From an archaeon (lineage in GTDB: Archaea > Hydrothermarchaeota > Hydrothermarchaeia > JALTZZ01), in the NCBI GenBank assembly GCA_027051165.1, contig JALTZZ010000034.1, positions 1 through 21,213 on the forward strand: a DNA stretch of 21,213 nucleotides, read 5' to 3'. Position numbers and translations under genes: made by a program. Below the pieces are notes generated by a model. The model saw nothing but the letters and a program-made list of their open reading frames with translations, was not told where the DNA came from and made no database searches. Shown piece after piece: positions 1,845 through 21,213 of the stretch. Each line of letters starts with the position of its first letter. Positions within the stretch are counted from its first letter, which is position 1.

Positions 1845-4085
1845 TTATCTTCTTCTCTCGCCCCTTTTCGCAAGGTAGAATGCTGCTGCTAAAAGTATAA
1901 GCAGCACTGCACCGATAAGCGGAAGCGGCAGCTTCTTCTTCGGCTTTACCGGCGCTTTCTTGACCGCCTCCTTCACGGGCTTCGTTGCGTTTATGAGCTT
2001 CTCAAACTTTTCCACGGTTTTCTGCTCAGCGATTCCCAAGAACTGCTTTAACAGCTCTGGTGAATCGAGCAGTGCATATATCTTTTCCATTTCTCTGTCT
2101 TTCTCGCCCCACTTCTCCAGTTCATTGAGATACTCTTCTATATCTCTCTCAACGCTGAAGTTCCCGGTCATAATCTTGGCGATAATCTCCTCCCTCTTCT
2201 TCTTCAGCTCCGCTTTTCTTCTGTTAAGCTCGTCCAAGAAAATTCTTTTAGCCTTGGTTTCGTTGATTTTTTCCGCAAGCTTCAGAGCCTCTGCATACCT
2301 CTCTTCCTCTATTGCTCTTATTACGTTGGGATAGTAGTGCCTAAGGAAATCTCTGTATCTTTCGTATTCCGTGCTGTTGTGCTTTGTTTTCTCATAGTCT
2401 CTCAGCAGCTCAAGCGCCCTTCTCTCGTTTATTATTTCAGCTTCTTTTATCAGCGTTGAAACGTCAACATCTCTTTCTTCAAGGAAAGCTTCGTAGAGCT
2501 TCTCCTTTACGTATTCGTATAAGAAGTCCTTGTAAATCTGTTTGTATTCTTCGAAAGCCTTAATGAGTTTGACTCTCGGAATTGTGCAGTTTGGCAGTTT
2601 AATTTCATCCGGCAGCTTCTTAATTTCTGTTTCGTCAAAAGTTACAATTGCCTTATAGAGCGCCGTTGCATATCTGCTGTTAGGATTATCTGCAAGGTAG
2701 TTCGTTACAGCGAAGTGTAGTAGAGTTGTGTCTTCAGTTACAGCCCTGCAAAGAAGTCCGCTCGCATCGAGACTCATGTTTTCCCAGTCGTTCTTGAAGT
2801 AGTAGTAGAAAATTCTTGAATATGGTGTTTCATTCGCTGAAACTACTTTTCTGTCGAAGTAGTCCTTCAGGTTGTGAGCTCTGAACTCTATCGTATCCTT
2901 TTTATCGTAGAACAAAATTCTTACCGATACTGTTTGAGGCTTTGAAAAATCTATATCAGCAAGCTTTAAAACTGAACCTTCGAGCCTGAGATTCCCCCTG
3001 TGGTATATTATTCCGTTCTGGAAGTCGAATCCATCTCTTATCTCCTTTATAATCTTGTTCTTAACTGGTATCTCATAGTCAAGCGTATAGTTCACGTAGA
3101 ACCTCGGGAAGTATACGTATCCCTTGAGAAGGCTTATCTTTTCTGCGTATCCGAGCATATACTCTGTGCCTTCACCCTTTCTGTAGAGAACTCGCCTGAA
3201 CTGAAATCCTATCTCCTGCTTGAGGTTCCTCGGTTCGTTGCCTTCAAGCCCCCTTACAAAGTCTGGATCGCTGAAGGCTCTCCTCGCAAATTCGTTTCTA
3301 AAGTAGTTTACGCCCTTATTTATCACGTGAAGCTGTATGCCTCTGAGAACGCCCTCATCAACAGAAACCTCTCTTTCCTCATCTCCTATAATAACCCAAG
3401 TCTTCTCAACGATGACATCGCCCGGCTCAAGCTCATCTTTGAACAGAGCTTCCGGTTTGATTCTGTATTTCACTTTTACTGTATTCTGGTCGCTTGCGTT
3501 GCAGATGAGAGCCATGGTTCTGTTTCCGTATTTAACCTCGTATTCTAAAAGATAAGGACACTCTATCTGCTCAAACCCCTGTCTTTTTCCGAAGTTCGTA
3601 TACAGCGTGCACTTCAGCACCATTTCCTCTTCGAACTCAAGCTCCGGAATATCTGTTTTATAGACTAAAAGATCACCGGCTTTTATCGCATCCTGAACGA
3701 AAGTGTTGTTCCTGAAGCTTAACGCATAGCTGTCAAGGGTTACAAGTTCTGGATATATTTTGTAGTTCCTGTATAATTTCTGGAAGAATCTTTTTCCTTT
3801 TTCATAAGCTGTTTTGTATTTATCCTCTCCAGTGTAGTGGTGCATCACTGCAAGCTCCAGCAGTCTGCCAGCCATTATCGTTGTTTCTATAGCCTTGCTT
3901 TCCGCAATAGCACCGTTCGGTAGCTGGTTTTCAATGGACTTCTCTGCATTGTATTTTGTCGGGAAGTAGATGATTTTTCCGTAGTCCTCCTCCGGCTTAA
4001 TGGTTTGAGGAACCGTTTTTACTACGAGCCCGCTCACGCTGCCCAGCATCACCAACAGCACCGCTAAAACCGCTACCCACCTCAT
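1845..4085 (-). CDS. large secreted, C-terminally membrane-anchored (surface) protein, function unknown
   Basis: 746 aa; N-terminal signal peptide MRWVAVLAVLLVMLGSVSG; C-terminal hydrophobic helix LPLIGAVLLILLAAAFYLA followed by KRGERRR; start ATG 4085 lies about 30 nt after a palindrome plus A/T box on the minus side. Confidence 0.75.
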   Translation of the reverse strand: MRWVAVLAVLLVMLGSVSGLVVKTVPQTIKPEEDYGKIIYFPTKYNAEKSIENQLPNGAIAESKAIETTIMAGRLLELAVMHHYTGEDKYKTAYEKGKRFFQKLYRNYKIYPELVTLDSYALSFRNNTFVQDAIKAGDLLVYKTDIPELEFEEEMVLKCTLYTNFGKRQGFEQIECPYLLEYEVKYGNRTMALICNASDQNTVKVKYRIKPEALFKDELEPGDVIVEKTWVIIGDEEREVSVDEGVLRGIQLHVINKGVNYFRNEFARRAFSDPDFVRGLEGNEPRNLKQEIGFQFRRVLYRKGEGTEYMLGYAEKISLLKGYVYFPRFYVNYTLDYEIPVKNKIIKEIRDGFDFQNGIIYHRGNLRLEGSVLKLADIDFSKPQTVSVRILFYDKKDTIEFRAHNLKDYFDRKVVSANETPYSRIFYYYFKNDWENMSLDASGLLCRAVTEDTTLLHFAVTNYLADNPNSRYATALYKAIVTFDETEIKKLPDEIKLPNCTIPRVKLIKAFEEYKQIYKDFLYEYVKEKLYEAFLEERDVDVSTLIKEAEIINERRALELLRDYEKTKHNSTEYERYRDFLRHYYPNVIRAIEEERYAEALKLAEKINETKAKRIFLDELNRRKAELKKKREEIIAKIMTGNFSVERDIEEYLNELEKWGEKDREMEKIYALLDSPELLKQFLGIAEQKTVEKFEKLINATKPVKEAVKKAPVKPKKKLPLPLIGAVLLILLAAAFYLAKRGERRR

Positions 4086-4116: not shown

Positions 4117-4132
4117 CCTCACAGCTGTGAGG
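4117..4132. promoter_or_regulatory. palindrome module copy a: CCTCACAGCTGTGAGG
   Basis: 16-nt perfect dyad; minus side AAATTGATTTATAAA box then ATG 4085; plus side GTTTCGAAAGGCTTAAGAAG arm upstream of the SPFH gene. Confidence 0.6.
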
Positions 4133-5458: not shown

Positions 5459-5616
5459 TGGGAAGAACAGATCTGCATGTGGAATTCGGAAATCTGATAG
5501 CCTCGGCGATAATATCGGTTTTCTTCATAGTATTGGGATTTTACACCGAAAAGTGGATATCCATCTTGGGGACTATTTTTTGCATCTTATTTATCATGAA
5601 AGGATACAAACACTAA
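5458..5616 (+). CDS. candidate 52-aa two-TM small membrane protein (below the 60-aa ORF-track threshold)
   Basis: ATG overlaps the stop of 5135..5458 (TGATG); translation MGRTDLHVEFGNLIASAIISVFFIVLGFYTEKWISILGTIFCILFIMKGYKH has two hydrophobic helices. Confidence 0.35.
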   Translation: MGRTDLHVEFGNLIASAIISVFFIVLGFYTEKWISILGTIFCILFIMKGYKH

Positions 5617-6215
5617 ACCTCAAAGACATAATCTCTCCACCCAAGTCCGTTTCCATGCGTTACCGATACAACTGCAGCGTTCTTTCCTATTTTCACTTCG
5701 ATGATTTTGTATCCCTTCTTTTTTCTTCTGTCCAAAGGAGCAAAATACTCTCCAATCTTTTCTTGAAAAACTTTTTCATCCGAATAATCAAAAAAGCCCT
5801 TATACTCCTTAGGCTCTACCCCCAACTCCTTAAGCAGATAACGGAGATAGTCCTCTAATTCAACCCATGGATAAACTATTACCGCGATCTCCGGAGTCGT
5901 GTAGCTTCTGCACCTGAAGCAGTATGTCTTTCCATCTTTTATTGACAATCTTCCCTTACATTTCGGGCACACCTCTATTCTTTCTTTCACAAGCTCGGTC
6001 TTCACACCTTTGGGATCTTCCTCCATTAGGAAATAATCTCTGTGTTCAGCATCATAAATGATGTAGAACTTTTCCCTGCAATAGTATACATCCTTAATTC
6101 TGCTTTCTTTCAGCAGAACACGCACTTCATCCTCATCTTTGGTTAGAAGCCTCGCCGGAATTCTCCCACCTTTAACAATTCTGCCTCCGATCCAGCTTGC
6201 CACCAAAACAGCCAT
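5613..6215 (-). CDS. zinc-ribbon protein (CPKC...CFRC), function unknown
   Basis: 200 aa; CxxC-x16-CxxC ribbon; GGAGGAG Shine-Dalgarno 6 nt before the ATG on the minus strand. Confidence 0.6.
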   Translation of the reverse strand: MAVLVASWIGGRIVKGGRIPARLLTKDEDEVRVLLKESRIKDVYYCREKFYIIYDAEHRDYFLMEEDPKGVKTELVKERIEVCPKCKGRLSIKDGKTYCFRCRSYTTPEIAVIVYPWVELEDYLRYLLKELGVEPKEYKGFFDYSDEKVFQEKIGEYFAPLDRRKKKGYKIIEVKIGKNAAVVSVTHGNGLGWRDYVFEV

Positions 6216-6924: not shown

Positions 6925-7431
6925 ATGAAGGAGTATAAGCACTATAAAAGATTGGAGAAGTGGCTTGCATCTAAAGGATTCAGCATTTTTGAGAAGATTA
7001 GGTATGGAAAGCATGAATTCGATATAGTTGGAATAAATGATATTAAAACTATCAATGTAGAGGTAAAAGAGGTGTTTTTTCAAAGATTGATAGATCAGGC
7101 GAAGAAGAGGCTGGAGCTGAAGATTTTCGATTATGTGTATATTGCTTATCCTTTCAGGAAGAAGCCCAAGGTTGATTGGCTCGCTGAATACGGCATAGGT
7201 GTTATTGATTTATCTAATAACGAGATTGTTTTATCGGCTAAGAGGCTTGAGACCGACTTTAGAGAAAAGGAGAAGTTTATCAATTATTTGTTGAGAAAGA
7301 ATTTTGAAATATCTATTGAGCATGATGACTATTATTTTCTGAAAAGAAGATTGAAGAAAGAGGGGTTTAAGAGCGTTGAAGATTTTCTGATAAAATATGC
7401 TCGGTATGAGCTTGAGGTTTATAAACGCTGA
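6925..7431 (+). CDS. PD-(D/E)xK (restriction-endonuclease/Hjc-NucS-like fold) nuclease-like protein
   Basis: 168 aa; E..L...G...hhFDIVG (D) ... NVEVKE (ExK) motif order; leaderless-type promoter (palindrome 6881, TTTTAAAAAT box, ATG at 6925). Confidence 0.6.
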   Translation: MKEYKHYKRLEKWLASKGFSIFEKIRYGKHEFDIVGINDIKTINVEVKEVFFQRLIDQAKKRLELKIFDYVYIAYPFRKKPKVDWLAEYGIGVIDLSNNEIVLSAKRLETDFREKEKFINYLLRKNFEISIEHDDYYFLKRRLKKEGFKSVEDFLIKYARYELEVYKR

Positions 7432-7450
7432 TTCTCACAGCTGTGAGAAT
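7431..7450. promoter_or_regulatory. palindrome module copy d: ATTCTCACAGCTGTGAGAAT (20-nt perfect, variant outer arms)
   Basis: Begins at the stop codon of 6925..7431; acts as its terminator hairpin; pairs with copy e across a 72-nt iteron-bearing spacer. Confidence 0.6.
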
Positions 7451-7522
7451 TATCAATTAGTTGGCAATTCGTTGGCAATGACAACAAATAGCATTCTCAA
7501 TTAATTATCAATTAGTTGACAA
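7448..7522. repeat. iteron-like direct repeats between palindromes d and e
   Basis: AATTATCAATTAGTTGGCAA (7448-7467) repeated as AATTATCAATTAGTTGACAA (7503-7522); additional TTGGCAAT at 7472. Confidence 0.7.
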
Positions 7523-7540
7523 CCCTCACAGCTGTGAAGG
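7523..7540. promoter_or_regulatory. palindrome module copy e (one mismatch: CCCTCACAGCTGTGAAGG)
   Basis: Seen directly; 72 nt from copy d. Confidence 0.5.
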
Positions 7541-7544
7541 TAAG

Positions 7545-7650
7545 CTTATACATTTTTAAGCTTATACATTTTAATGTATAATTCTTTAAAAAAGCTTATA
7601 CAGCTGAATGTATAATCTTTTTTAAATGATTATCCAGCAGAATGTATAAA
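7545..7650. repeat. nested dyad array of TTATACA / TGTATAA half-sites
   Basis: Half-site 7545-7554; full palindromes TTATACATTTTAATGTATAA (7563-7582) and TTATACAGCTGAATGTATAA (7597-7616); half-site 7641-7650; overall symmetric around ~7595; followed by TGTAACTTAGTTACA palindrome 7666-7680. Confidence 0.65.
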
Positions 7651-7736
7651 GATAGGTTGCACCTGTGTAACTTAGTTACAGGGGTGTGACTTTACCATTT
7701 CCTTTATTCTTTAAGAAAATTCTTAAGAGCAAAAAA

Positions 7737-8135
7737 TCACACCTTCACAGCTGTGAGGAACTTTCTTTTATAGTAGTGGACGGTTGAAACCGGGATTCCG
7801 AGCCTTTTTGAAACCTGCTTAACGGTTAAACCCTTTTTGAGAAGCTCAATCACGGGCTTCGGATCTCTCCTTTTAGGTCTTCCCGGCATTTTGCACTCGG
7901 CAACAAGATCAACGCCCACCTTTTCCAAAGCTCTTTTTATCTTGCTCGGAACCGCTTTGTGCAGGCTCGGCGGAATGGAAATCTCTTTTATGTTCGGAGC
8001 CTTGGAAAGAATGTGGACGAGCACCGCGGTTGAAGGTCTTATGCTCAAATGAACCTTCTCGGTTTTTTCATCGAGCTTTTCCTCAATTTCGTGGAAAATT
8101 TCTTCAATGGTTTTAGCCTGCAGCTTCACTTCCAT
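7737..8135 (-). CDS. helix-turn-helix DNA-binding protein (C-terminal HTH), candidate regulator
   Basis: 132 aa; C-terminal GRPKRR...LTVKQVSKRLGIPVSTVHYY HTH resembling resolvase/transposase-N HTH; ATG 8135 sits about 30 nt after the GTTCGAAAATCTTAAGA arm of palindrome 8178. Confidence 0.7.
   Translation of the reverse strand: MEVKLQAKTIEEIFHEIEEKLDEKTEKVHLSIRPSTAVLVHILSKAPNIKEISIPPSLHKAVPSKIKRALEKVGVDLVAECKMPGRPKRRDPKPVIELLKKGLTVKQVSKRLGIPVSTVHYYKRKFLTAVKV
7742..7758. promoter_or_regulatory. palindrome module copy f (CCTTCACAGCTGTGAGG)
   Basis: 5 nt after the stop of minus gene 7737..8135; terminator-like position. Confidence 0.55.
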
Positions 8136-8177: not shown

Positions 8178-8192
8178 CTCACAGCTGTGAGG
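8178..8192. promoter_or_regulatory. palindrome module copy g, bidirectional promoter
   Basis: Plus side GAATTCGATTTTTAAGCTTTAAGGTTGCTGGTGGTGGGT then ATG 8231; minus side GTTCGAAAATCTTAAGAG then ATG 8135. Confidence 0.65.
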
Positions 8193-8230
8193 AATTCGAT
8201 TTTTAAGCTTTAAGGTTGCTGGTGGTGGGT

Positions 8231-8563
8231 ATGTATGTTGATAAGGAGAAGCAACTTCAGGGCTTAATTAAAAGCTACATGGTGTATGCTCAGAACTTGG
8301 GGATTTCGGAGAGGGAACTTTTGGATATGATATACTATGCGGCGAGAACGAGAGGGGATCAGTATAAGTGCCTGAACTGCGTTTACTCAAGGGCGCACAA
8401 AAGCATAAACGAGAAGAAAGTTGAAAAAGAGGGAAGGATAAGCATATACGCAAGGCAGTGCGTTTTCGGGATTTTCTACAGAGAGGACTGCCCGGTTCAG
8501 GTTCCCATAATCGAGAGGAAAAATGATGAGGCTTCTCTACGAGCTGAACAGGAAAGCGAGTGA
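8231..8563 (+). CDS. cassette gene A (copy 1): 110-aa Cys-containing protein (KCLNC ... QC ... DC), unknown
   Basis: ATG at 8231 (track start 8216 is TTG) 30 nt after GATTTTTAAGC box and preceded by GGTGGTGGGT; 80-90 % identical paralog at 20097..20414. Confidence 0.6.
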   Translation: MYVDKEKQLQGLIKSYMVYAQNLGISERELLDMIYYAARTRGDQYKCLNCVYSRAHKSINEKKVEKEGRISIYARQCVFGIFYREDCPVQVPIIERKNDEASLRAEQESE

Positions 8564-8885
8564 AACCATAAGGTTCAAAGCCCTTGCATTCTGGCTCGGA
8601 AACGCTGTTAGCATCGTTGAAAGAGGAAAAATAATCAAGGCAACGGTTTTCCTCGAAGGATATCAGAAAGCTCCAAATATTGTAGTTATAAACGAAGAGA
8701 GAATTTCGTGCACGAAGAAGGGAAGGAAGTGCGATTCCTTGAGAACGAACGGCGTGTGCTCCCACGTTCTTGCCGTCCTTTACGCCGTCTGCAGAACAAC
8801 CGGCTTCAGAGGTGAGGAGTATTGGAGGCTGAAGAAAAAAGCGCAGAATTTTCTGAAAAGCTGGAGTGCAAAAAGAAAGAGGTGA
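8523..8885 (+). CDS. cassette gene B (copy 1): SWIM-type zinc-finger protein
   Basis: 120 aa; ISCTKKGRKCDSLRTNGVCSHVLAVLYA fits the SWIM CxC..CxH signature (CSHVLAVL resembles the canonical CKHILAVL); overlaps the end of A; paralog at 20389..20751. Confidence 0.7.
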   Translation: MMRLLYELNRKASETIRFKALAFWLGNAVSIVERGKIIKATVFLEGYQKAPNIVVINEERISCTKKGRKCDSLRTNGVCSHVLAVLYAVCRTTGFRGEEYWRLKKKAQNFLKSWSAKRKR

Positions 8886-9124
8886 AGAATGCGATAATAT
8901 TTATAGGTGCGACCGCAATGTATCTATTTTACGTCGTTCTGCTGGCAACCTTCATGCTCGCATACGGGAGCGATGCGAAGCAGGTTGTCGTGGACGTGAA
9001 CGGCTTCGGAGAGGCGAAAATCGAATACATAATGCTGCTATTTCTCACTCCGCTGCTCACGCTTGCTTATTACTACATAGCCGAAGAAATGAGCTGCAGA
9101 AGGTGCAGAATCAGAAAATCCTGA
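8882..9124 (+). CDS. cassette gene C (copy 1): 80-aa two-TM membrane protein with C-terminal CRRC; start re-called to GTG overlapping the B stop (GTGA)
   Basis: track ORF 8822 begins at TTG; the in-frame GTG at 8882 overlaps the B stop, and the paralog has ATG at the identical position (ATGA at 20748); hydrophobic helices IIFIGATAMYLFYVVLLATFML and IMLLFLTPLLTLAYYYI. Confidence 0.55.
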   Translation: MKNAIIFIGATAMYLFYVVLLATFMLAYGSDAKQVVVDVNGFGEAKIEYIMLLFLTPLLTLAYYYIAEEMSCRRCRIRKS

Positions 9125-9260
9125 ACTCCCCCTTTCTCAGCTTTTCTTCAATCTTCTTCAGCTTTTTGTAATCGAGCCCGTATTTTTCCGCAGTCTCCTT
9201 CCATCTTCCGTTGCCCAGAAGAATTTGTATCATGTCGTGAAGCTTGATCACGATCTTCAT
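9111..9260 (-). CDS. cassette gene D (copy 1): convergent 49-aa protein, possible mini-HTH
   Basis: Not in track (<60 aa). MKIVIKLHDMIQILLGNGRWKETAEKYGLDYKKLKKIEEKLRKGEFRIF. Minus-strand palindrome 9289 plus GAATTCGATTTTTAAAATTTTATAAAAAT box, then ATG. 3' end overlaps C by 14 nt antisense. Paralog at 20977..21126. Confidence 0.45.
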   Translation of the reverse strand: MKIVIKLHDMIQILLGNGRWKETAEKYGLDYKKLKKIEEKLRKGEFRIF

Positions 9261-9288
9261 ATTTTTATAAAATTTTAAAAATCGAATT

Positions 9289-9303
9289 CTTCACAGCTGT
9301 GAG
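9289..9303. promoter_or_regulatory. palindrome module copy h
   Basis: CTTCACAGCTGTGAG; minus side GAATTCGATTTTTAAAATTTTATAAAAAT then ATG 9260 (gene D1). Confidence 0.55.
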
Positions 9304-9425
9304 TTCCTAAAAAAGCATCTGCAGCACATTCTGAGAATTTCGTTTACCCTGCAGCTCCACGTGCACTCAATGCAGCAGTTCTTTTCACAGCTCCTGCACC
9401 TTTTCAATCCTGCTTCCTCGCACAT
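9291..9425 (-). CDS. candidate 44-aa cysteine-rich peptide (10 Cys)
   Basis: MCEEAGLKRCRSCEKNCCIECTWSCRVNEILRMCCRCFFRNSQL; same strand, 46 nt after 9472..9786; stop lies inside palindrome 9289; could instead be an artefact of CTGCAGC repeats. Confidence 0.25.
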   Translation of the reverse strand: MCEEAGLKRCRSCEKNCCIECTWSCRVNEILRMCCRCFFRNSQL

Positions 9426-9471
9426 GACTCGTGTGCAAACACTAAAATTAATTTAATTTCTGGAGGAATCT

Positions 9472-9786
9472 TCATTTTTTAACCACCTTTTTCAGCTTTT
9501 CGTAGAATGCTTTCAGCTCCTCATCGGCTACAAACGCTTTCATCCATTTTTCAAGGTGCCGGAGAAGAAGCTCGGGCATGGGCTTCTCCGGAACGTATAA
9601 TCTATCTTTTTCTTCGAATCCACGTTCATAGCTTCTGCACATCCACTTTCCGCAGATTTTCTTCTTGCACGGATCTTCCGGCAGAGGGAACAGCCATCTC
9701 CAGTCGGGAGATTTCAAAACCGGGCATCCGAGCAAAGATTCTTGCTCCCACAGCTTTTCAAACACCTCGCAGGGGATTTTATTCAT
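9472..9786 (-). CDS. 104-aa Cys/Trp-rich protein, unknown; likely co-transcribed with the PAPS-reductase-like gene
   Basis: Start overlaps the 3' end of 9779..10633 by 8 nt; six Cys (CEV, GCP, CKKKICGKWMC). Confidence 0.5.
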   Translation of the reverse strand: MNKIPCEVFEKLWEQESLLGCPVLKSPDWRWLFPLPEDPCKKKICGKWMCRSYERGFEEKDRLYVPEKPMPELLLRHLEKWMKAFVADEELKAFYEKLKKVVKK

Positions 9787-10633
9787 GCGAGCATCCCCTG
9801 CCAGCTATATGAGGTAAAAAGCACTGACAGCTTATTTTTTCAAGCTTTTTAACCCTTTTAACTCCCTCTTTACCTTTTAAATCAGCCTTGCTGAAAATAT
9901 TCATCAGCCTTTCGTAATCCTCGGGAAAGAACCTCTTTATTTTCATGATCTTTTCCTCTGAGAGATCGTGGAGCATGCACATGCATTCCCCGCTCATAGA
10001 AATAGCTTTATACACGGGATTAACAGGCAGACTGGCAGCTTTTATGTATTCTTCAACCTTTTCTCTGTTCCAATCTAATATAGGACAGTAGCTGTATTCT
10101 TTGTGCCTTCCCTTATACACTTTGTTCGTCTTCAGATACTCGCCGTAAATCTCAAATCTCCTTGAGCTCTCGTGAATTCTTATCCCGTTCACCGACAGCT
10201 TCACACCGTTTATTGATTTTAAGAACTTGGACAGAGGCTGATACTTGAGAACACGGAAGCACCACCTGCATCTGCCGTGTAAAGGCACACCCCACCTTTT
10301 TAGTCCATCTTCAAAGCTCATCTCGGGCTTTAAAACCTTGAAGTCGAAGGGATACCTCTTAACGAACTCCCTGATAAACTGCTTGCATGCGGAGATTCCT
10401 ATTCCCGTATCAATGTGAATTATAGTTGCTTTTACGCTCAGCTTGGCGGTTTTGTAAAGCCTGTAGAAAACATCTAAAGCAACCATGCTGTCCTTACCGC
10501 CGCTGAAGAGAATGAAGATGTTTTTGGGCCTGTAAAGCTCAACAACCTTCTTTAAATTCTCAGCTTCCTCTAAAAGTCCAAATCTCCTTAATAAATCCGC
10601 TTCTTTAAAAAACTTCTGCAGAGTCATCTGCAT
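9779..10633 (-). CDS. PAPS reductase / PP-loop ATP pyrophosphatase family protein (CysH/DndC-like fold)
   Basis: 284 aa; FSGGKDS PP-loop; DWNREKVEEYIKAASLPVNPVYKA..SMSGECMCM aligns with the CysH-family DWxxxDVWxYIxxxxLPYNPLY..GYxSIGC motif; C-terminal Cys cluster; promoter is palindrome 10676 plus CTTTAAAAG box about 30 nt before ATG 10633. Confidence 0.85.
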   Translation of the reverse strand: MQMTLQKFFKEADLLRRFGLLEEAENLKKVVELYRPKNIFILFSGGKDSMVALDVFYRLYKTAKLSVKATIIHIDTGIGISACKQFIREFVKRYPFDFKVLKPEMSFEDGLKRWGVPLHGRCRWCFRVLKYQPLSKFLKSINGVKLSVNGIRIHESSRRFEIYGEYLKTNKVYKGRHKEYSYCPILDWNREKVEEYIKAASLPVNPVYKAISMSGECMCMLHDLSEEKIMKIKRFFPEDYERLMNIFSKADLKGKEGVKRVKKLEKISCQCFLPHIAGRGCSHE

Positions 10634-10675
10634 GTTAATCCCCTCTGAGACGGCTTTCTTTTAAAGCTTTCTGAA

Positions 10676-10690
10676 CCTCACAGCTGTGAG
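10676..10690. promoter_or_regulatory. palindrome module copy i
   Basis: Minus side GTTCAGAAAGCTTTAAAAGAAAGC then ATG 10633 (PAPS-reductase-like gene). Confidence 0.6.
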
Positions 10691-10753
10691 AAACCGAGTG
10701 CTCGGCATAAAGCATCAGAATGATTTTTTTCAGAGAAATAATGTATTCCGTGC

Positions 10754-11323
10754 TCACTTCTCCCCGCATATGAACTTCACTATGCTTTCAAGCTTCTTCT
10801 TCAGCTTTGAATCAGCTTCGAAGCTCTCTATGTCGTTTCTTATAAGCCAAGAATCGAGCTTCTTTATGTAGGGAATCCACTCTATAAGCTGCAAACCCAG
10901 CTCCTTGGCTACGCTCAAAGCCTCTTTTTCGCTGGCAGATAGATTTACCACGACACCTAAAACCCCGCATCCGCAGTTATAAGCAGTTTCGACGAGCTCC
11001 TTGGCTACGAGAACGTTGTGCCTGTGCGGCAGAGTTATCAAAACCAGATCCATCGGATTTTCCTTCAAATACAGGAAGCTCTGCTTCTCCCTCGGGAAGA
11101 CAACGATTCCCAATCCAGCTCCTTTCTTAGCCTTGTTGTATAGTTTTGTCAGCTTTCCGAGCTCGTCGAAGTCGTAAACTCTGATATCAAATTCTTTTGC
11201 TATTAAGCTTGCGATAGTGCACTTGCCTGAGTTGTTCTCTCCTATAAATCCCACCGGCTTGCTCAGAGAATAAACCTTCTCCTCCTTTTTCAAAAAGTCC
11301 TTAAGCATGTTGTCGAGGTTCAT
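10754..11323 (-). CDS. small P-loop NTPase (Walker A GENNSGKCT, Walker-B-like DLVLITL)
   Basis: 189 aa; leaderless-type start about 22 nt after CTTATAAGC box next to perfect palindrome 11351..11370. Confidence 0.65.
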   Translation of the reverse strand: MNLDNMLKDFLKKEEKVYSLSKPVGFIGENNSGKCTIASLIAKEFDIRVYDFDELGKLTKLYNKAKKGAGLGIVVFPREKQSFLYLKENPMDLVLITLPHRHNVLVAKELVETAYNCGCGVLGVVVNLSASEKEALSVAKELGLQLIEWIPYIKKLDSWLIRNDIESFEADSKLKKKLESIVKFICGEK

Positions 11324-11350
11324 GCCATACTTGTGAGCTTATAAGCTTGA

Positions 11351-11370
11351 TTCCTCACAGCTGTGAGGAA
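11351..11370. promoter_or_regulatory. palindrome module copy j: TTCCTCACAGCTGTGAGGAA (20-nt perfect), bidirectional promoter
   Basis: Plus side TTGATTTTTTAAG then ATG 11398; minus side CAAGCTTATAAGCTC then ATG 11323. Confidence 0.65.
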
Positions 11371-11397
11371 TTGATTTTTTAAGTTTAAGTTATCCTT

Positions 11398-12096
11398 ATG
11401 ATAGAGATAGAAGCCGCCGCCGACGATGAAAAAATTCGCGGGAGAGTTCATCTGCACATAGACAGAAGAGTGAAAAGCAGAGGGATCTATGTTAGACTTT
11501 TCGGAGCAGAAGAAGTTAGAATTGTCGATCGTGTTGATAAAAAACTTAGAAAAGCAAAAAACATAATAATAGATGAAATAAGGAAGATTAAAGATAAAGG
11601 AGAGCTCTTCGGCAGCTATACTTTAAGCTTTGAATTCAAACTTCCGGAGAATCGTCTGCCAACATACAGAGGGGTTTACGTGAATATATTTTACAAAGTG
11701 GCTACATGGATTGATATACCGTTCAGATTCGATATTAAAGCAGAAAAAGAAATTGAAATTTTGCCTAAGTGCAGCATGCCGTATAAATTACGGAAATCCT
11801 TCTTAAATAAGGCTGTATTTAGGAGAGGGGAAATTATAAGAGGGAGAATTGAAGGTAGAAGCAGGGTAAAGCTCGTTTGTGTTGAGAGTGCGGACACGAA
11901 GCATGTCAGCGCTAAAATAGCAGTTTACGAAAAAGAGGTTGACGTGCTTTCCGGAGGTTTTTCGATAAAGATACCGAATGATGCTCCCTTCAGCTATGCC
12001 GGGAAGCTTTCCTCTGTTGCGTGGTATCTTGTTGTCGGTGGTGAGCACATACCGATAGCCGTTCTTCCTCACAGCTGTGAGGAATTGATTTTTTAA
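11398..12096 (+). CDS. hypothetical 232-aa protein (beta-rich, arrestin/Spo0M-like impression only)
   Basis: ORF begins 28 nt after GATTTTTTAAG box of palindrome 11351; ends inside palindrome 12065 (PHSCEE encoded by the repeat). Confidence 0.55.
   Translation: MIEIEAAADDEKIRGRVHLHIDRRVKSRGIYVRLFGAEEVRIVDRVDKKLRKAKNIIIDEIRKIKDKGELFGSYTLSFEFKLPENRLPTYRGVYVNIFYKVATWIDIPFRFDIKAEKEIEILPKCSMPYKLRKSFLNKAVFRRGEIIRGRIEGRSRVKLVCVESADTKHVSAKIAVYEKEVDVLSGGFSIKIPNDAPFSYAGKLSSVAWYLVVGGEHIPIAVLPHSCEELIF
12065..12084. promoter_or_regulatory. palindrome module copy k (20-nt perfect)
   Basis: Overlaps the last codons of 11398..12096; plus side TTGATTTTTTAAGCTCTTTATTTGTTGGTGGTGCGGA then ATG 12122. Confidence 0.65.
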
Positions 12097-12121
12097 GCTC
12101 TTTATTTGTTGGTGGTGCGGA

Positions 12122-12439
12122 ATGGCGGGGGTTATTATTTTTGTAGATAGGATTGCGCTTTTAGTAAGTTTTGTTAAAAACGAGATAAAAAGCATCAGCA
12201 AAAACGAAACGGAAGCCGTTTTCAACGTTCTAAGCGTGGTTCATGAACTGCTGAGAGATGTAGAAGTGAAGGACGATGAACTGAAGAAAAAGCTGAGAGC
12301 TGTAAAAGATATAACGAGGGCTGAGATAGAGAGCATAGAGAAAAATCCGTTCTCAAAGGCGCTGGCGACAATTTACATTACAAAGGAGCTTTTGGAAGAT
12401 TTCCACAGCGAGGCAGAGCTTCTCGTAAAGCAGAGGTGA
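12122..12439 (+). CDS. hypothetical 105-aa protein, first gene of a coupled operon
   Basis: Starts in the conserved module tail GGTGGTGCGGAATGGCGGGG; stop overlaps the next start (GTGA). Confidence 0.5.
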   Translation: MAGVIIFVDRIALLVSFVKNEIKSISKNETEAVFNVLSVVHELLRDVEVKDDELKKKLRAVKDITRAEIESIEKNPFSKALATIYITKELLEDFHSEAELLVKQR

Positions 12440-13359
12440 GTTTCGTGGGTAGAACCTGCTACTACATTTTTTACGTGAAAAACAAGGTAAAAGCTTATCT
12501 TGTGAAGAGCGATTTCCTTGAAATGACGAGAAACAACGTATGGTTCTGCGAGACTCCAGATATCGGCATTAGAGAGCGGGAAAAAGTTGAAGAATACCTT
12601 CCAGAAATCTTTGAGCCTCCGAAGAGGTTCAAAGAGCTGGAGCTGATATACAACAACGGAACCACCAGCAAAATTTCTTATAAAGAATATAAAAAGTATG
12701 AAAGAAGCTACAATGTTCTGGACTACATAAGAAGACACGTAAAGAAGGTCAGAGTAATAAAAAGGCTTCCGGGGTATGAAGTTTACGGCTGGTGCAAGAC
12801 TGCAGAGTGCGATTTCGATGTTCTGTATCTGCTCAACGTTGCAAGGAAAATTTCGGAGAAATACGGAATCAGAGCAAGATTCGAGGATGAGGGCGAAATT
12901 TACTACGGTGATATCGTAAAAGGTGAGCTGAAGGGTATGGAAATAAGCGATGAGATTATAGCAGAGCTGAAAGAAAAGCACTTCAAAATACTTGAGGCAA
13001 GGATCCCGCTGAACATAGCAAAGTTCTTCAAGCAGTATCCGGACTGGATAGACTTCAGTATAAAAACTTTGACGGAGTTCCTTGCAACCGACGACGATTC
13101 TGTTGATATACTGTTCGGAAGGAAGAAAGGAAAGCTCAATGTTCCAGCTGGACTCTCCGCCGTAAAATTCAGCGAGAAAATGTATCCATTTGCAGCGCTG
13201 ATTCACGAAGAAACCTATGAAATGCTTGAGATCCTCAAGGGATCTCTCGACATGACGGAGGATGAGATACTTAAGCTTGCGTTTAGAGCGGTTGCAACGA
13301 AGTATAGTTACATGTTTGACAAATATATCAAAGAAGTTCCGGCGAGGTATCTGATATGA
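12436..13359 (+). CDS. hypothetical 307-aa protein
   Basis: GTG start overlapping the upstream stop; K/E-rich; ATGA overlap with the next gene; antisense ORF 12373..13401 judged spurious. Confidence 0.6.
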   Translation: MSFVGRTCYYIFYVKNKVKAYLVKSDFLEMTRNNVWFCETPDIGIREREKVEEYLPEIFEPPKRFKELELIYNNGTTSKISYKEYKKYERSYNVLDYIRRHVKKVRVIKRLPGYEVYGWCKTAECDFDVLYLLNVARKISEKYGIRARFEDEGEIYYGDIVKGELKGMEISDEIIAELKEKHFKILEARIPLNIAKFFKQYPDWIDFSIKTLTEFLATDDDSVDILFGRKKGKLNVPAGLSAVKFSEKMYPFAALIHEETYEMLEILKGSLDMTEDEILKLAFRAVATKYSYMFDKYIKEVPARYLI

Positions 13360-16592: not shown

Positions 16593-17150
16593 TCAGCGGG
16601 GTCTGTAGTATTCTCTGTCTTTTCTTATCAATCGATTCTCAAACAACTCTGCAGTAGCTCTATACACTTCCTGCCTGCTCATGTCTAAATAGTTCATTAT
16701 CTGCGAAAAAGTCGCTCCGTTATTCTGTTTAATAAATTCATAAACCCTTCTTGCAGATTCGCTGAGATTTTTAGTTTTTTCTTCATCGGATTTCTGATAT
16801 TCTTTTCTTTCTTCTCTTCTTCTGATTTCGCTCTCATACTCTCGAAAGGATTGATTTTTTAACTCTTCGAGAATCTGCAGAATCAGATCTACTTTCCTTT
16901 CTATTTTATCGAGCTTTTCCAAGATTTCCGTGCTCTGACCTGCCGTGCTTATAGAGATTTTCTGCAGCATCTGCTTTGCAACATAGCTTCTCGCTCTCAT
17001 TATTTTTTCCTGTAGATCTGGGGCATTCTGATAGTCGTCCCTGTATTCCGCAAGCTCCTGCAGAAATTTTATTTTTTCCTCCTCACTCTTACCTTCCAAA
17101 GCCTTTTCTATAAACTTCTTAGCATCCTCTATAAACAGCTCGTCCATCAT
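16593..17150 (-). CDS. winged-helix transcriptional regulator with N-terminal coiled coil
   Basis: 185 aa; C-terminal ARRVYEFIKQNNGATFSQIMNYLDMSRQEVYRATAELFENRLIRK wHTH; bracketed by palindromes 16573 (3' end) and 17179 (promoter). Confidence 0.7.
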   Translation of the reverse strand: MMDELFIEDAKKFIEKALEGKSEEEKIKFLQELAEYRDDYQNAPDLQEKIMRARSYVAKQMLQKISISTAGQSTEILEKLDKIERKVDLILQILEELKNQSFREYESEIRRREERKEYQKSDEEKTKNLSESARRVYEFIKQNNGATFSQIMNYLDMSRQEVYRATAELFENRLIRKDREYYRPR

Positions 17151-20042: not shown

Positions 20043-20058
20043 CTTCACAGCTGTGAGG
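20043..20058. promoter_or_regulatory. palindrome module copy p (CTTCACAGCTGTGAGG)
   Basis: Plus side GAATTCGGTTTTTAAATTCTAAGGTTTCTGGTGGTGTGT then ATG 20097 (paralogous to copy g arm). Confidence 0.6.
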
Positions 20059-20096
20059 AATTCGGTTTTTAAATTCTAAGGTTTCTGGTGGTGTGT

Positions 20097-20414
20097 ATGT
20101 ATGTTGATAAGGAGAAGCAGCTTCAGGGATTGATTAAAAGCTATATGGTGTATGCTCAGGGCTTGGGGATTTCGGAGAAGGAGATTTTAAATATGATATA
20201 CTTCGCCGCCCGTGAGAGGGGAGATAGATTCAAGTGCCTGAACTGCATATACAGCAGGGCTCACAAAAGCATAAACGAGAAGAAGGTTGAAAAAGAGGGA
20301 AGGATAAGCATATACGCAAGGCAGTGCGTATTCGGGATTTTCTACAGGGACGACTGCCCGGTTCAGGTGCCTATAATCGAGAGGAAGGATGAGAGGTCTT
20401 CTTCACAAGCTTAA
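20097..20414 (+). CDS. cassette gene A (copy 2)
   Basis: Paralog of 8231..8563 (about 85 % aa identity over the first 95 aa; C-terminal tails differ); ATG 20097 follows GGTGGTGTGT; track start 20088 is GTG. Confidence 0.6.
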   Translation: MYVDKEKQLQGLIKSYMVYAQGLGISEKEILNMIYFAARERGDRFKCLNCIYSRAHKSINEKKVEKEGRISIYARQCVFGIFYRDDCPVQVPIIERKDERSSSQA

Positions 20415-20751
20415 CAGAAAAGCGAGCGAAACAATAAGGTTCAAAGCGCTGGCATTTTGGCTCGGAAATGCGGTTAGCATCGTTGAAAAGGGGAAAACAA
20501 TTAAGGCAACGGTTTTTCTCGAAGGATATCAGAAAGCTCCGAACATTGTGGTTATAAACGAAGAGAGAATTTCATGCACGAAGAAGGGGAGAAAGTGCGA
20601 CTCTTTAAGAAGAAACGGCGTGTGCTCCCACGTTCTTGCAGTTCTGTATGCTCTGTGCAGAACAACCGGATACAGAGGTGAGGAGTATTGGAAGCTGAAG
20701 AAAAAGGCGCAGAGCTTCCTCAAAAGCTGGAGTGCAAAAAGAGTGAGATGA
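20389..20751 (+). CDS. cassette gene B (copy 2): SWIM-type zinc-finger protein
   Basis: Paralog of 8523..8885; same CTKKGRKCDSLRRNGVCSHVLAVLYA motif; a compensating indel pair at the A/B junction keeps the B start. Confidence 0.7.
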   Translation: MRGLLHKLNRKASETIRFKALAFWLGNAVSIVEKGKTIKATVFLEGYQKAPNIVVINEERISCTKKGRKCDSLRRNGVCSHVLAVLYALCRTTGYRGEEYWKLKKKAQSFLKSWSAKRVR

Positions 20752-20990
20752 AAAGAGATGTAATAATTATAGGTGCAACTGTAATGTTTATGTTTTACAC
20801 CGTCCTGCTGGCAACCTTCATGCTCGCATACGAGAGCGAGGCAAAGCAGGTTGTTGTGGATATCAATGCCTACGGAGAAGCCAAAATAGAATACATAATG
20901 CTGATGTTCACCACTCCGCTGCTCGTGCTCGCTTATTATTACATTATTGAAGAGTTAAGCTGCAGAAGATGCAAGCTTAAAAAATCCTGA
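20748..20990 (+). CDS. cassette gene C (copy 2): 80-aa two-TM membrane protein (ATG overlapping B stop, ATGA)
   Basis: Track start 20688 is TTG; ATG 20748 overlaps the B2 stop exactly where copy 1 has GTG; C-terminal CRRC conserved. Confidence 0.55.
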   Translation: MKRDVIIIGATVMFMFYTVLLATFMLAYESEAKQVVVDINAYGEAKIEYIMLMFTTPLLVLAYYYIIEELSCRRCKLKKS

Positions 20991-21126
20991 ACTCCCCCTT
21001 TCTCAGCTTTTCTTCGATCTTTCTCAGCTTTTTGTAATCGAGTCCGTATTTTTCAGCCGTCTTCTTCCATCTGCTGTTCCCAAGCAGAATCTCCATCAGG
21101 TCGTGAAGGTTCATCACGATCTTCAT
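20977..21126 (-). CDS. cassette gene D (copy 2): convergent 49-aa protein
   Basis: MKIVMNLHDLMEILLGNSRWKKTAEKYGLDYKKLRKIEEKLRKGEFRIF; 41/49 identical to copy 1; minus-strand palindrome 21154 plus AATTTAAAAGC box upstream. Confidence 0.45.
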   Translation of the reverse strand: MKIVMNLHDLMEILLGNSRWKKTAEKYGLDYKKLRKIEEKLRKGEFRIF

Positions 21127-21153
21127 GCATGCATAACAGCTTTTAAATTCTAT

Positions 21154-21170
21154 CCTTCACAGCTGTGAGG
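21154..21170. promoter_or_regulatory. palindrome module copy q, bidirectional
   Basis: Minus side ATAGAATTTAAAAGCTGTTATGCATGC then ATG 21126; plus side GTTTGTATTTTTAAGCTCTCTACTTATTGGTGGTGCGGATGG runs off the window end. Confidence 0.6.
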
Positions 21171-21213
21171 GTTTGTATTTTTAAGCTCTCTACTTATTGG
21201 TGGTGCGGATGGT

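Follow-up and report, generated by a model that had tools for sequence, protein, structure and literature searches.

SWIM zinc-finger domains (PF04434) are found, for example, in ZSWIM8, in Shu2/SWS1, in MuDR transposases and in bacterial SWI2/SNF2 ATPases. In the aspA-parB-parA partition cassette of Sulfolobus pNOB8, the first gene encodes a small site-specific DNA binder, genes for an adaptor and a Walker ATPase come next, and a palindromic site lies upstream. Some operator-controlled gene sets of archaeal viruses and plasmids are governed by a single small regulator, such as the ribbon-helix-helix proteins F55 of SSV1 and SvtR of SIRV1. To our knowledge, very little is known about the mobile elements of Archaeoglobi. 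Here, we describe a block of four small genes, designated A to D, that is present twice in the window, i.e., the complete stretch of 21,213 nucleotides that was analyzed. Gene B encodes a divergent relative of the SWIM proteins as judged by its structural model, and A, C and D represent three orphan protein families. Neither a tRNA nor any Rfam family was detected in the window.

Local alignment showed copy 1 (positions 8179-9303) and copy 2 (20045-21169) to be collinear and displaced throughout by 11866 nt, with 959 of 1116 identical nucleotides (85.9%) and with no indels other than small, compensating ones. This bears out the first-pass annotation, which had reported a four-gene cassette present twice, about 11.9 kb apart and about 85% identical, and which had also correctly described a 1-nt deletion and a 1-nt insertion, located within 5 nt of each other, at the A/B junction. 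The reading frames of A, B, C and D are intact in both copies, and conservation between the copies is lowest at third codon positions. The dN/dS ratio is lowest for B (0.07), followed by D (0.14), A (0.18) and C (0.28), at dS values of about 0.5-0.8 (0.52-0.76; Fisher p 1e-4 to 6e-18), far from the ratio of about 1 that is expected for a decaying duplicate. Comparison of the copies thus shows purifying selection on every gene of the block. A third, syntenic four-gene copy resides in another MAG (GCA_054046405.1), and both paralogue types recur in other assemblies, the copy 1 type in L001 and L003 and the copy 2 type in L002, P0005 and P0007. The two copies are old paralogues that are both maintained, neither of them being a recent or a decaying duplicate, and the earlier suggestion that the duplication is not inert is supported.

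At almost every promoter in the window, the palindrome TCACAGCTGTGA is located 9-10 nt upstream of the TATA box. It is present in 17 exact copies where none would be expected; start codons follow at a distance of 30-44 nt, and the same layout is seen at 15 gene starts. In front of the A-B-C genes of copy 1, the palindromic operator occupies positions 8179-8190 and is followed after 9 nt by the TATA-like box TTTTTAAGCT (8200-8209, plus strand), which ends 21 nt before the start of A. The same palindrome lies 43 nt from the start of a divergent DUF1699-HTH gene (7737-8135) on its left. The equivalent promoter of copy 2 (20045-20075, plus strand) consists of a palindrome at 20045-20056 and TTTTTAAATT at 20066-20075. 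In both cases the palindrome is followed by a TTTTTAA box, and A starts 40 nt past the palindrome; a palindrome module directly before each copy had been noted earlier. Both D genes have their own palindrome and TATA box, with the start codon 30 nt from the palindrome. The D promoter of copy 1 (9272-9302, minus strand) carries the TATA-like sequence TTTTTAAAAT at 9272-9281 and the palindrome at 9291-9302, and because of the short distance to the start codon the D transcript is probably leaderless. In copy 2, D and the next gene, whose ATG is found at 21209, share a bidirectional module (21138-21187) with one TATA box on the minus strand, the palindrome at 21157-21168 and one TATA box on the plus strand. 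The genes following copy 2 are paralogues of the region 12122-13359, as shown by L002.

The identical 12-mer with equal spacing to the TATA box was also detected in Geoglobus-type loci that differ greatly in GC content, among them arrays of five to six palindromes adjoining GGGGACAA iterons (L006, L007). It is absent from loci whose A protein is 57% identical or less. A scan of IMG/VR for palindrome pairs yielded one contig (L016). This is a coincidence, as the contig stems from a high-GC phage and the 12-mer lies inside a coding tandem repeat (VTAVT). A full-text literature search for the palindrome returned unrelated primer sequences only.

Gene A, the family's anchor gene, encodes 110 amino acids in copy 1 (8231-8563, plus strand) and 105 in copy 2 (20097-20414, plus strand), where the variable tail is shortened by an earlier stop. 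Four cysteines (C47, C50, C77 and C87) are invariant across relatives at 36-90% identity. Only A (69-73% identity) and D (about 30%) are detectably shared between the window and the palindrome-containing Geoglobus-type loci, and A is the only protein that is strongly conserved there. Pfam, PHROG, NCBIfam, PADLOC and PDB sequence searches gave no match for A, and neither Pfam, NCBIfam nor PDB sequence search revealed a recognizable DNA-binding domain. Relatives of A were encountered in only three GTDB and two JGI contigs. The protein was not found in IMG/VR, tblastn searches with A and B gave no match in PLSDB plasmids or INPHARED phages, and genes A to D are missing from all plasmid and virus records of INPHARED, PLSDB and IMG/VR. 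A 165-aa antisense open reading frame (8268-8765) is considered spurious because it is not preserved in copy 2. The 118-aa protein encoded upstream of the B-like gene in L010 looks A-like by eye. It is free of cysteines, and hhalign gave no significant alignment with A (E 0.19 over 14 columns).

Gene B (copy 1, 8523-8885; copy 2, 20389-20751; both plus strand) shares 41 nt with the end of A in copy 1 and encodes a 120-aa protein with a pI of 10.3, which is 90% identical between the copies. A programmed A-B frameshift fusion was considered and dismissed, as the overlap contains no conserved slippery site and copy 2 lacks the A-run of copy 1. The first-pass annotation had assigned a SWIM-type zinc finger to B. 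The SWIM signature reads CxCxnCxH with n usually between 6 and 16 (PMC5727457). In B, the invariant ligand candidates C63, C70, C79 and H81 form the motif C-x6-C-x8-C-x-H, and the canonical CxC...CxH is not present; the first candidate, C63, lies 6-11 residues before C70 on the preceding strand. Compared with PF04434, B reaches 13.3 bits (gathering threshold 19.6), confined to residues 76-89. None of the family members attains the gathering score, and the best E-value among the seven is 0.011. Modelling with AF2 on the basis of these seven sequences gave a good model, while a run with three near-identical sequences (pLDDT 58.6) was not used. The model features the beta-sheet packed on the CxH-bearing helix by which the SWIM fold is recognized. 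Thus, the fold agrees with the original assignment; of the signature, C70-x8-C79-x-H81 is present and invariant and the CxC dyad is absent. According to this model, B is a stand-alone, divergent SWIM-fold protein with four putative zinc ligands. Its family is a new, very rare SWIM branch with a rearranged ligand pattern: exhaustive HMMER searching of 1.84 billion representatives found five clusters, including four distant relatives. An indexed search of 5.8 billion proteins returned the two copies only, scans with back-translated B gave no hit in the GTDB genomes or in IMG/VR, and Foldseek with the B model found nothing significant in PDB or BFVD. The PDB sequence searches made for the cassette returned chance matches only, to myoglobin and to a helical barrel designed de novo.

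Gene C (copy 1, 8822-9124; copy 2, 20688-20990; both plus strand) specifies a protein with two hydrophobic segments and basic termini that ends in CRRCRIRKS in copy 1. Two transmembrane helices are predicted, in agreement with its earlier description as a small two-TM protein. Translation from GTG at 8882 in copy 1 or ATG at 20748 in copy 2 would yield 80 amino acids, and translation from TTG at 8822 or 20688 would yield 100. The proposed conserved stop-start coupling at the B/C junction, represented by GTGA in copy 1 and ATGA in copy 2, did not survive comparison with the third copy, which has ATAA at this position. The TTG codon, on the other hand, is kept in all three copies and is preceded by the Shine-Dalgarno-like sequence AGAGGTGAGGAG, so that C may be a 100-aa protein starting inside B. 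Relatives of C were not found outside the close family, and weak NCBIfam matches of C and D, far below the cut-offs, were disregarded.

Gene D (copy 1, 9111-9260; copy 2, 20977-21126; both minus strand) encodes a basic 49-aa protein (pI 9.9) and is convergent with C. Size, charge, orientation, the 14-nt overlap with C and the palindrome promoter of its own all agree with what had been read from the sequence at the outset. The overlap (TCAGAAAATCCTGA) measures exactly 14 nt in copy 1, copy 2 and the third copy (L003). It is explained by constraints on both protein C-termini, since the C-terminal G-x-F-R-I-F of D is conserved even where nothing overlaps. A weak resemblance to HTH_28 (E 0.014; 15.9 bits, cut-off 25) and a conserved hydrophobic pattern in common with 58-aa Geoglobus-type proteins hint that D might be a minimal helix-turn-helix protein. 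Element types with identical 12-bp operators differ in this putative recognition helix of D.

A, B, C and D occur together only in near relatives with 80-86% nucleotide identity. The four genes had been put forward as a conserved unit, but beyond these near relatives the block breaks up: distant relatives carry A and B, or D, A, X and archaeal MinD, or A alone, or B without A, and C and D do not travel together outside the close family. The distant L009/L018 lineage has A adjoining B with a 4-nt ATGA overlap. Geoglobus-type loci show the order D-like gene, A, gene for an 82-93-aa protein and archaeal minD (TIGR01969, 306 bits). In L017, A is flanked on one side by a homologue of the 746-aa protein of the window and on the other by a DUF927 primase-helicase gene. 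B occurs without A in L013 and probably in L010, and as A likewise occurs without B, the A-B partnership is not obligatory. A deviant-Walker-A ATPase is present in the Geoglobus-type A operon and absent from the A-B-C and D units of the window. A possible partner outside the cassette is a 189-aa P-loop protein (10754-11323, minus strand), encoded 1.5 kb from the block, which does not have the signature lysine and is weakly MinD/NifH-like in its C-terminal half. It has no significant similarity to the Geoglobus MinD. A 44% identical homologue is encoded 1.4 kb from the A-B pair of L009.

We propose, tentatively and at somewhat less than an even chance, that the block is part of the control or maintenance core of an undescribed mobile element and acts through a DNA-bound zinc-protein complex. 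The element would be an uncharacterized plasmid, integrated element or virus of Archaeoglobaceae (Archaeoglobus-type). The block comprises two convergent transcription units, the A-B-C operon and D, each with the standard promoter module of the element. A would be a sequence-specific DNA binder, most likely for the palindrome at promoters and at origin- or centromere-like arrays. The conserved adjacency of the genes suggests that B, whose translation would be coupled to that of A, serves as a partner or adaptor for A on DNA or protein. C, with both ends predicted to be cytoplasmic, would hold the complex at the membrane, as a tether or by sequestration; this role is a guess, because C has no relatives outside the close family. 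D would function as a co-regulator with an operator of its own. The likely output is control of transcription across the element, its partition or positioning, or both, because in sister elements A is the first gene of an operon that also encodes a small coiled-coil protein and archaeal MinD, and it is from this gene neighborhood that the link to partition is inferred. Note that the co-conservation of A and the palindrome may simply reflect the relatedness of the elements, and that the true operator binder could be a host factor, D, the wHTH protein or the DUF1699-HTH protein. In a more far-reaching version, which we regard as rather improbable, A-B-C would be a novel, ATPase-free device for membrane anchoring or partition of DNA, in which the palindrome acts as operator and centromere, B bridges A to C, the set is functionally interchangeable with X plus MinD, and the two copies provide two tethers or specificities.

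In principle, A-B-C may not be bound to DNA at all, but form a cysteine-rich metal or redox membrane complex or an accessory, with the operator being read by D, another HTH protein or a host factor. Conserved cysteines in A, B and C, the failure to detect a DNA-binding domain in A, a nearby PAPS-reductase gene and the availability of HTH proteins in the neighborhood, namely D, the DUF1699-HTH protein and the wHTH protein (16593-17150), are in line with this possibility. However, the putative recognition helix of D varies between element types sharing the same operator, and the other HTH proteins are undetectable or just 25% identical between them, whereas A retains its high identity. Furthermore, B is strongly basic, SWIM domains are known binders of DNA or protein, and elsewhere A neighbors MinD and a primase-helicase rather than redox enzymes. 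We consider this explanation unlikely. Even less probable is a third interpretation, in which B would belong to a Shu2/SWS1-like recombination or repair mediator with the 189-aa P-loop protein as a Rad51-paralogue-like partner. The latter is, albeit weakly, of the MinD/NifH rather than the RecA type, and its gene sits in a different transcription unit; moreover, the match of B with Shu2 is much weaker than that with ZSWIM8, and the Shu2 insertion domain is missing in B. Taken together, we deem such a mediator highly improbable.

The toxin or antisense-regulator flavor that had been ascribed to the cassette fared little better. As a toxin-antitoxin, abortive-infection or superinfection-exclusion module, it would comprise C as the effector, held in check by D or by an antisense transcript from the convergent D promoter. 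In its favor, C is small and has two TM segments, the convergent genes C and D overlap to the same extent in each copy without a strong terminator between them, and the element carries other defence-like cargo. Against it stand the absence of any PADLOC, Pfam, NCBIfam or PHROG match for A to D, with no toxin-antitoxin hit in PADLOC or Pfam, and the position of C as the third gene of an A-headed operon, where it is not separately controlled. In Geoglobus-type elements, D accompanies A in the same orientation and does so without C. The overlap requires no antisense account, given that the C-terminal motif of D is kept without it, and C is without relatives elsewhere. A defence function thus appears very doubtful. 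The idea that copy 2 is a decaying or assembly-derived duplicate without a function of its own draws its sole support from the existence of two copies in a metagenome-assembled contig. It is refuted by the selection data and conflicts with the whole reading frames in both copies and with the independent assembly of both paralogue types from other contigs and samples. An assembler would neither merge nor create copies that are just 86% identical, and we regard this idea as virtually untenable.

Should A, together with B, read the operator shared by the promoters of the element in which the cassette sits, this would provide a compact model, open to testing, of how transcription is controlled across a whole element in a hyperthermophilic archaeon. 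If the swap between A-B-C and A-X-MinD were functional, it would point to a new mode of DNA positioning in archaea. If neither is true, the finding is a well-supported annotation of four real genes.

Compared with SWIM domains of the PF04434 type, B has C-x6-11-C in place of the CxC dyad and, with its 120 aa, stands alone as a domain encoded by an archaeal mobile element. With type I and type II toxin-antitoxin systems employing small membrane toxins, the block has in common a small hydrophobic protein C and a convergent small gene D with overlapping 3' ends. It differs from them in that no family matches, C is translationally embedded in a three-gene operon and D goes with A. The Geoglobus-type operon of A, X and MinD is laid out like aspA-parB-parA of pNOB8, with DNA binding by A being putative. 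However, the sequences are unrelated to those of AspA and ParB, the operon in the window encodes the SWIM protein B and the membrane protein C instead of an ATPase, and the palindrome is also found at nearly every promoter. As in the gene sets of SSV1 F55 and SIRV1 SvtR, repeated operators lie next to the BRE/TATA elements of the promoters, A is a putative small regulator, and autoregulation is implied because the candidate regulator genes carry the operator themselves. F55 and SvtR are ribbon-helix-helix proteins, whereas A is a four-cysteine protein. At about 15 promoters its putative operator keeps a fixed position ahead of BRE/TATA, and in many cases one operator serves a divergent pair of promoters.

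Local alignment of positions 8179-9303 with 20045-21169 of the contig, which was analyzed over its entire 21,213 bp and stems from a metagenome-assembled genome, bore out the collinear duplication described in the first-pass annotation: the two copies share 85.9% identity at a constant offset of 11866, indels are small and mutually compensating, and four reading frames are intact in each copy. The same sequences are present in the ENA assemblies of sample REYS20-1. Gene A (8231-8563, 110 aa, in copy 1; 20097-20414, 105 aa, in copy 2) precedes gene B (8523-8885 and 20389-20751, 120 aa) and gene C, which ends at 9124 and 20990, respectively, and comprises 80 aa if read from GTG/ATG, or 100 aa if translation starts at a TTG further upstream. 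Gene D (9111-9260 and 20977-21126, 49 aa) resides on the opposite strand. A third complete copy with identical gene order was found on contig JBPLHO010000065.1 of assembly GCA_054046405.1 (L003), which matches the window collinearly over 20 kb at about 86% identity, swapped cargo genes excepted. All three copies keep the 14-nt overlap of C and D and a TTG after AGAGGTGAGGAG, located within B 60 nt upstream of the B/C junction. The stop-start overlap at this junction, previously taken as conserved, is not, as the sequence reads ATAA in L003.

Nei-Gojobori estimates gave dS values of 0.52-0.76 between the copies and dN/dS ratios well below 1 for all four genes (A 0.18, B 0.07, C 0.28, D 0.14). 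Neutrality was rejected for each gene (Fisher p ≤ 1e-4), and conservation is lowest at third codon positions. It follows that the duplication is old and that selection maintains both copies, in agreement with the earlier view that it is not inert; a decaying second copy is refuted by these values. The duplication also extends beyond the cassette. A 105-aa and a 307-aa gene (12122-13359; region 12069-13359) have paralogues directly after copy 2 (window end 21157-21213, continued in the related locus L002, 872-2183) with 71-82% nucleotide identity, while at copy 1 about 2.8 kb (9304-12068) lie between D and these genes.

Nearly every promoter in the contig bears the 12-bp palindrome TCACAGCTGTGA, usually extended to CCTCACAGCTGTGAGG, which occurs 17 times in the window (at 4119, 6432, 6881, 7435, 7526, 7745, 8179, 9291, 10678, 11355, 12069, 15843, 16577, 17181, 19961, 20045 and 21157) compared with none expected. 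It is followed, after 9-10 nt and on one or both sides, by a TTTTTAAGCT-like TATA box, and at about 15 genes its edge lies 30-44 nt from the start codon. Two divergent genes are often served by one palindrome (TATA, palindrome, TATA). Judged by sequence, this layout is that of an archaeal TATA promoter whose BRE is directly preceded by a putative operator. Separate promoter modules serve A-B-C and D, that of D in copy 2 being shared with the next, divergent gene, and the block thus reads as two predicted convergent transcription units. A 44-aa ORF with 11 cysteines (MCEEAGLKRCRSCEKNCCIECTWSC..., 9291-9425, minus strand) directly upstream of the D promoter is conserved in L003 (49 aa there); its stop codon falls inside the palindrome. 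Four occurrences of the 12-mer in an IMG/VR contig (L016, 7200-7352) lie inside a coding tandem repeat (KQVTAVTPFPDE) of an unrelated high-GC phage and were dismissed as coincidence.

The contig around the cassette is a mobile element, marked by the conserved 746-aa protein and the variable cargo described below, by uniform operator-bearing promoters and by an origin- or centromere-like non-coding region at 7420-7720. This region contains a 59-nt inverted repeat with the palindrome and CAATTAGTTGRCAA repeats in each arm, then four GCTTATACA / TGTATAA repeats and a GC-rich hairpin (CACCTGTGTAACTTAGTTACAGGGGTG). Neither tRNA genes nor Rfam families were detected in the window, and the element was not found in IMG/VR, INPHARED or PLSDB. 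A 746-aa protein (1845-4085, minus strand), 88% identical to its L003 counterpart and without family match, has a signal-like segment at its N-terminus and a membrane anchor at its C-terminus; it probably serves the element as a conserved surface protein. Five regions differ between the window and L003 (804-1766, 4216-5106, 9779-10633, 11398-12096 and 14133-15829). Here the window encodes a CapP/IrrE-like M78 peptidase, an SPFH/Band-7 protein, a BrxP/DndC-like PAPS reductase, an arrestin-N-like protein, and an AriA/AbiL/Gabija-like AAA_15 ATPase together with its 229-aa partner; of these, the peptidase, reductase and ATPase represent variable, defence-like cargo. The differing cargo of L003 consists of a CxxCxxCC protein and an SMC-like ATPase of 742 aa. 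Related elements encode TFB/TFIIB-like zinc-ribbon proteins (L003, 19622-20150; L018, 2317-2964), and a 200-aa protein of the window (5613-6215) yielded weak Rrn7/TFS4-like zinc-ribbon matches.

Past near relatives, A and B are extremely rare. Relatives of A are confined to two contigs of a Geoglobus MAG, one MAG labelled Hydrothermarchaeota and a few metagenome contigs. In the Geoglobus-type loci (L005-L008, L014), a D-like 58-aa gene is followed by A, an 82-93-aa coiled-coil protein and an archaeal MinD (TIGR01969, 306 bits); these loci lack B and C. At L017, A (57% identity) stands alone, flanked by a DUF927 primase-helicase gene and a divergently oriented, 51% identical homologue of the 746-aa protein. 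In loci L009 and L018, a TFB-like zinc-ribbon gene (directly upstream in L018) precedes an A-like gene (36-38% identity), which in turn overlaps the start of a B-like gene at ATGA. This B-like gene represents one of four further 50%-identity clusters of the B family among 1.84 billion representatives; the remaining ones have small AbrB-like genes as neighbours or belong to an operon in which no A is recognisable. By gene neighbourhood, the four genes form a unit in the close family alone, contrary to the idea of a conserved four-gene unit; the recurring pairs are A+B and D+A, with A as the common denominator.

Window (40% GC) and Geoglobus-type loci (55-60% GC) share an identical 12-bp palindrome at identical distance to the TATA box, and the only genes detectably shared over about 17 kb of the latter are A (69-73% identity) and D (about 30%). 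In the Geoglobus-type loci, five or six palindromes (L007 3950-4550, L006 3500-3760; spacings 37, 49 and 86 nt, AT-rich gap) lie beside GGGGACAA iterons, and these arrays likely constitute a replication origin or centromere. Loci with A at most 57% identical have other repeats instead of the palindrome. L017 (2400-2450) carries two direct repeats GACATAAGGGA flanked by a divergent pair of TATA boxes; these repeats may form a different operator, read by a diverged regulator. Unusual conservation is expected of a protein that must read many identical sites; A fits this expectation, but the putative recognition helix of D does not. We therefore tentatively propose A as binder of the operator or centromere. 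B would be its SWIM partner, C a membrane anchor and D a co-regulator, and the cassette may control transcription across the whole element, partition or position the element, or do both. Partition is considered because A elsewhere neighbours MinD and replication genes. This role of the cassette is suggested by sequence and neighbourhood comparisons.

A metal or redox complex not acting on DNA, with the operator bound by another protein, appears rather doubtful. The 189-aa P-loop protein encoded at 10754-11323 (minus strand) co-occurs with A-B in L009, as would suit a Shu2-like recombination mediator, but it looks MinD/NifH-like and not RecA-like, making this explanation very improbable. The toxin-antitoxin idea raised for C and D, or an exclusion module, is hardly probable either: no family match was obtained, C forms part of the A operon, and D accompanies A rather than C. 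In short, what the first-pass annotation had observed was confirmed, and its interpretation was supported in part.

The cassette thus consists of four real genes, of which three represent orphan families and one a new SWIM variant, and it belongs to the core of an undescribed archaeal mobile element. A, for which the libraries searched yielded no match, combines an N-terminal helical part with four invariant cysteines (C47-x2-C50 ... C77-x9-C87). In C, basic ends flank two hydrophobic segments, which probably places both termini in the cytoplasm; C also has a C-terminal CxxC. D is basic, matches HTH_28 weakly and can be aligned to the 58-aa proteins of the Geoglobus-type loci, with G-x-F-R-I-F at the C-terminus included. 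B is very basic (pI 10.3). Its AF2 model (seven sequences, pLDDT 91.7) shows two helices followed by a sheet of four to five strands and then by helices, one beginning at C79-S-H81, and C63, C70, C79 and H81 are invariant. The SWIM finger previously assigned to B is upheld by this predicted fold, but not by a canonical motif: C70-x8-C79-x-H81 fits the rule CxCxnCxH (PMC5727457), but the first cysteine is 6-11 residues away instead of one, and the Pfam SWIM model matches the helix part only, below threshold. B is therefore a SWIM protein in its modelled fold, with a variant motif.
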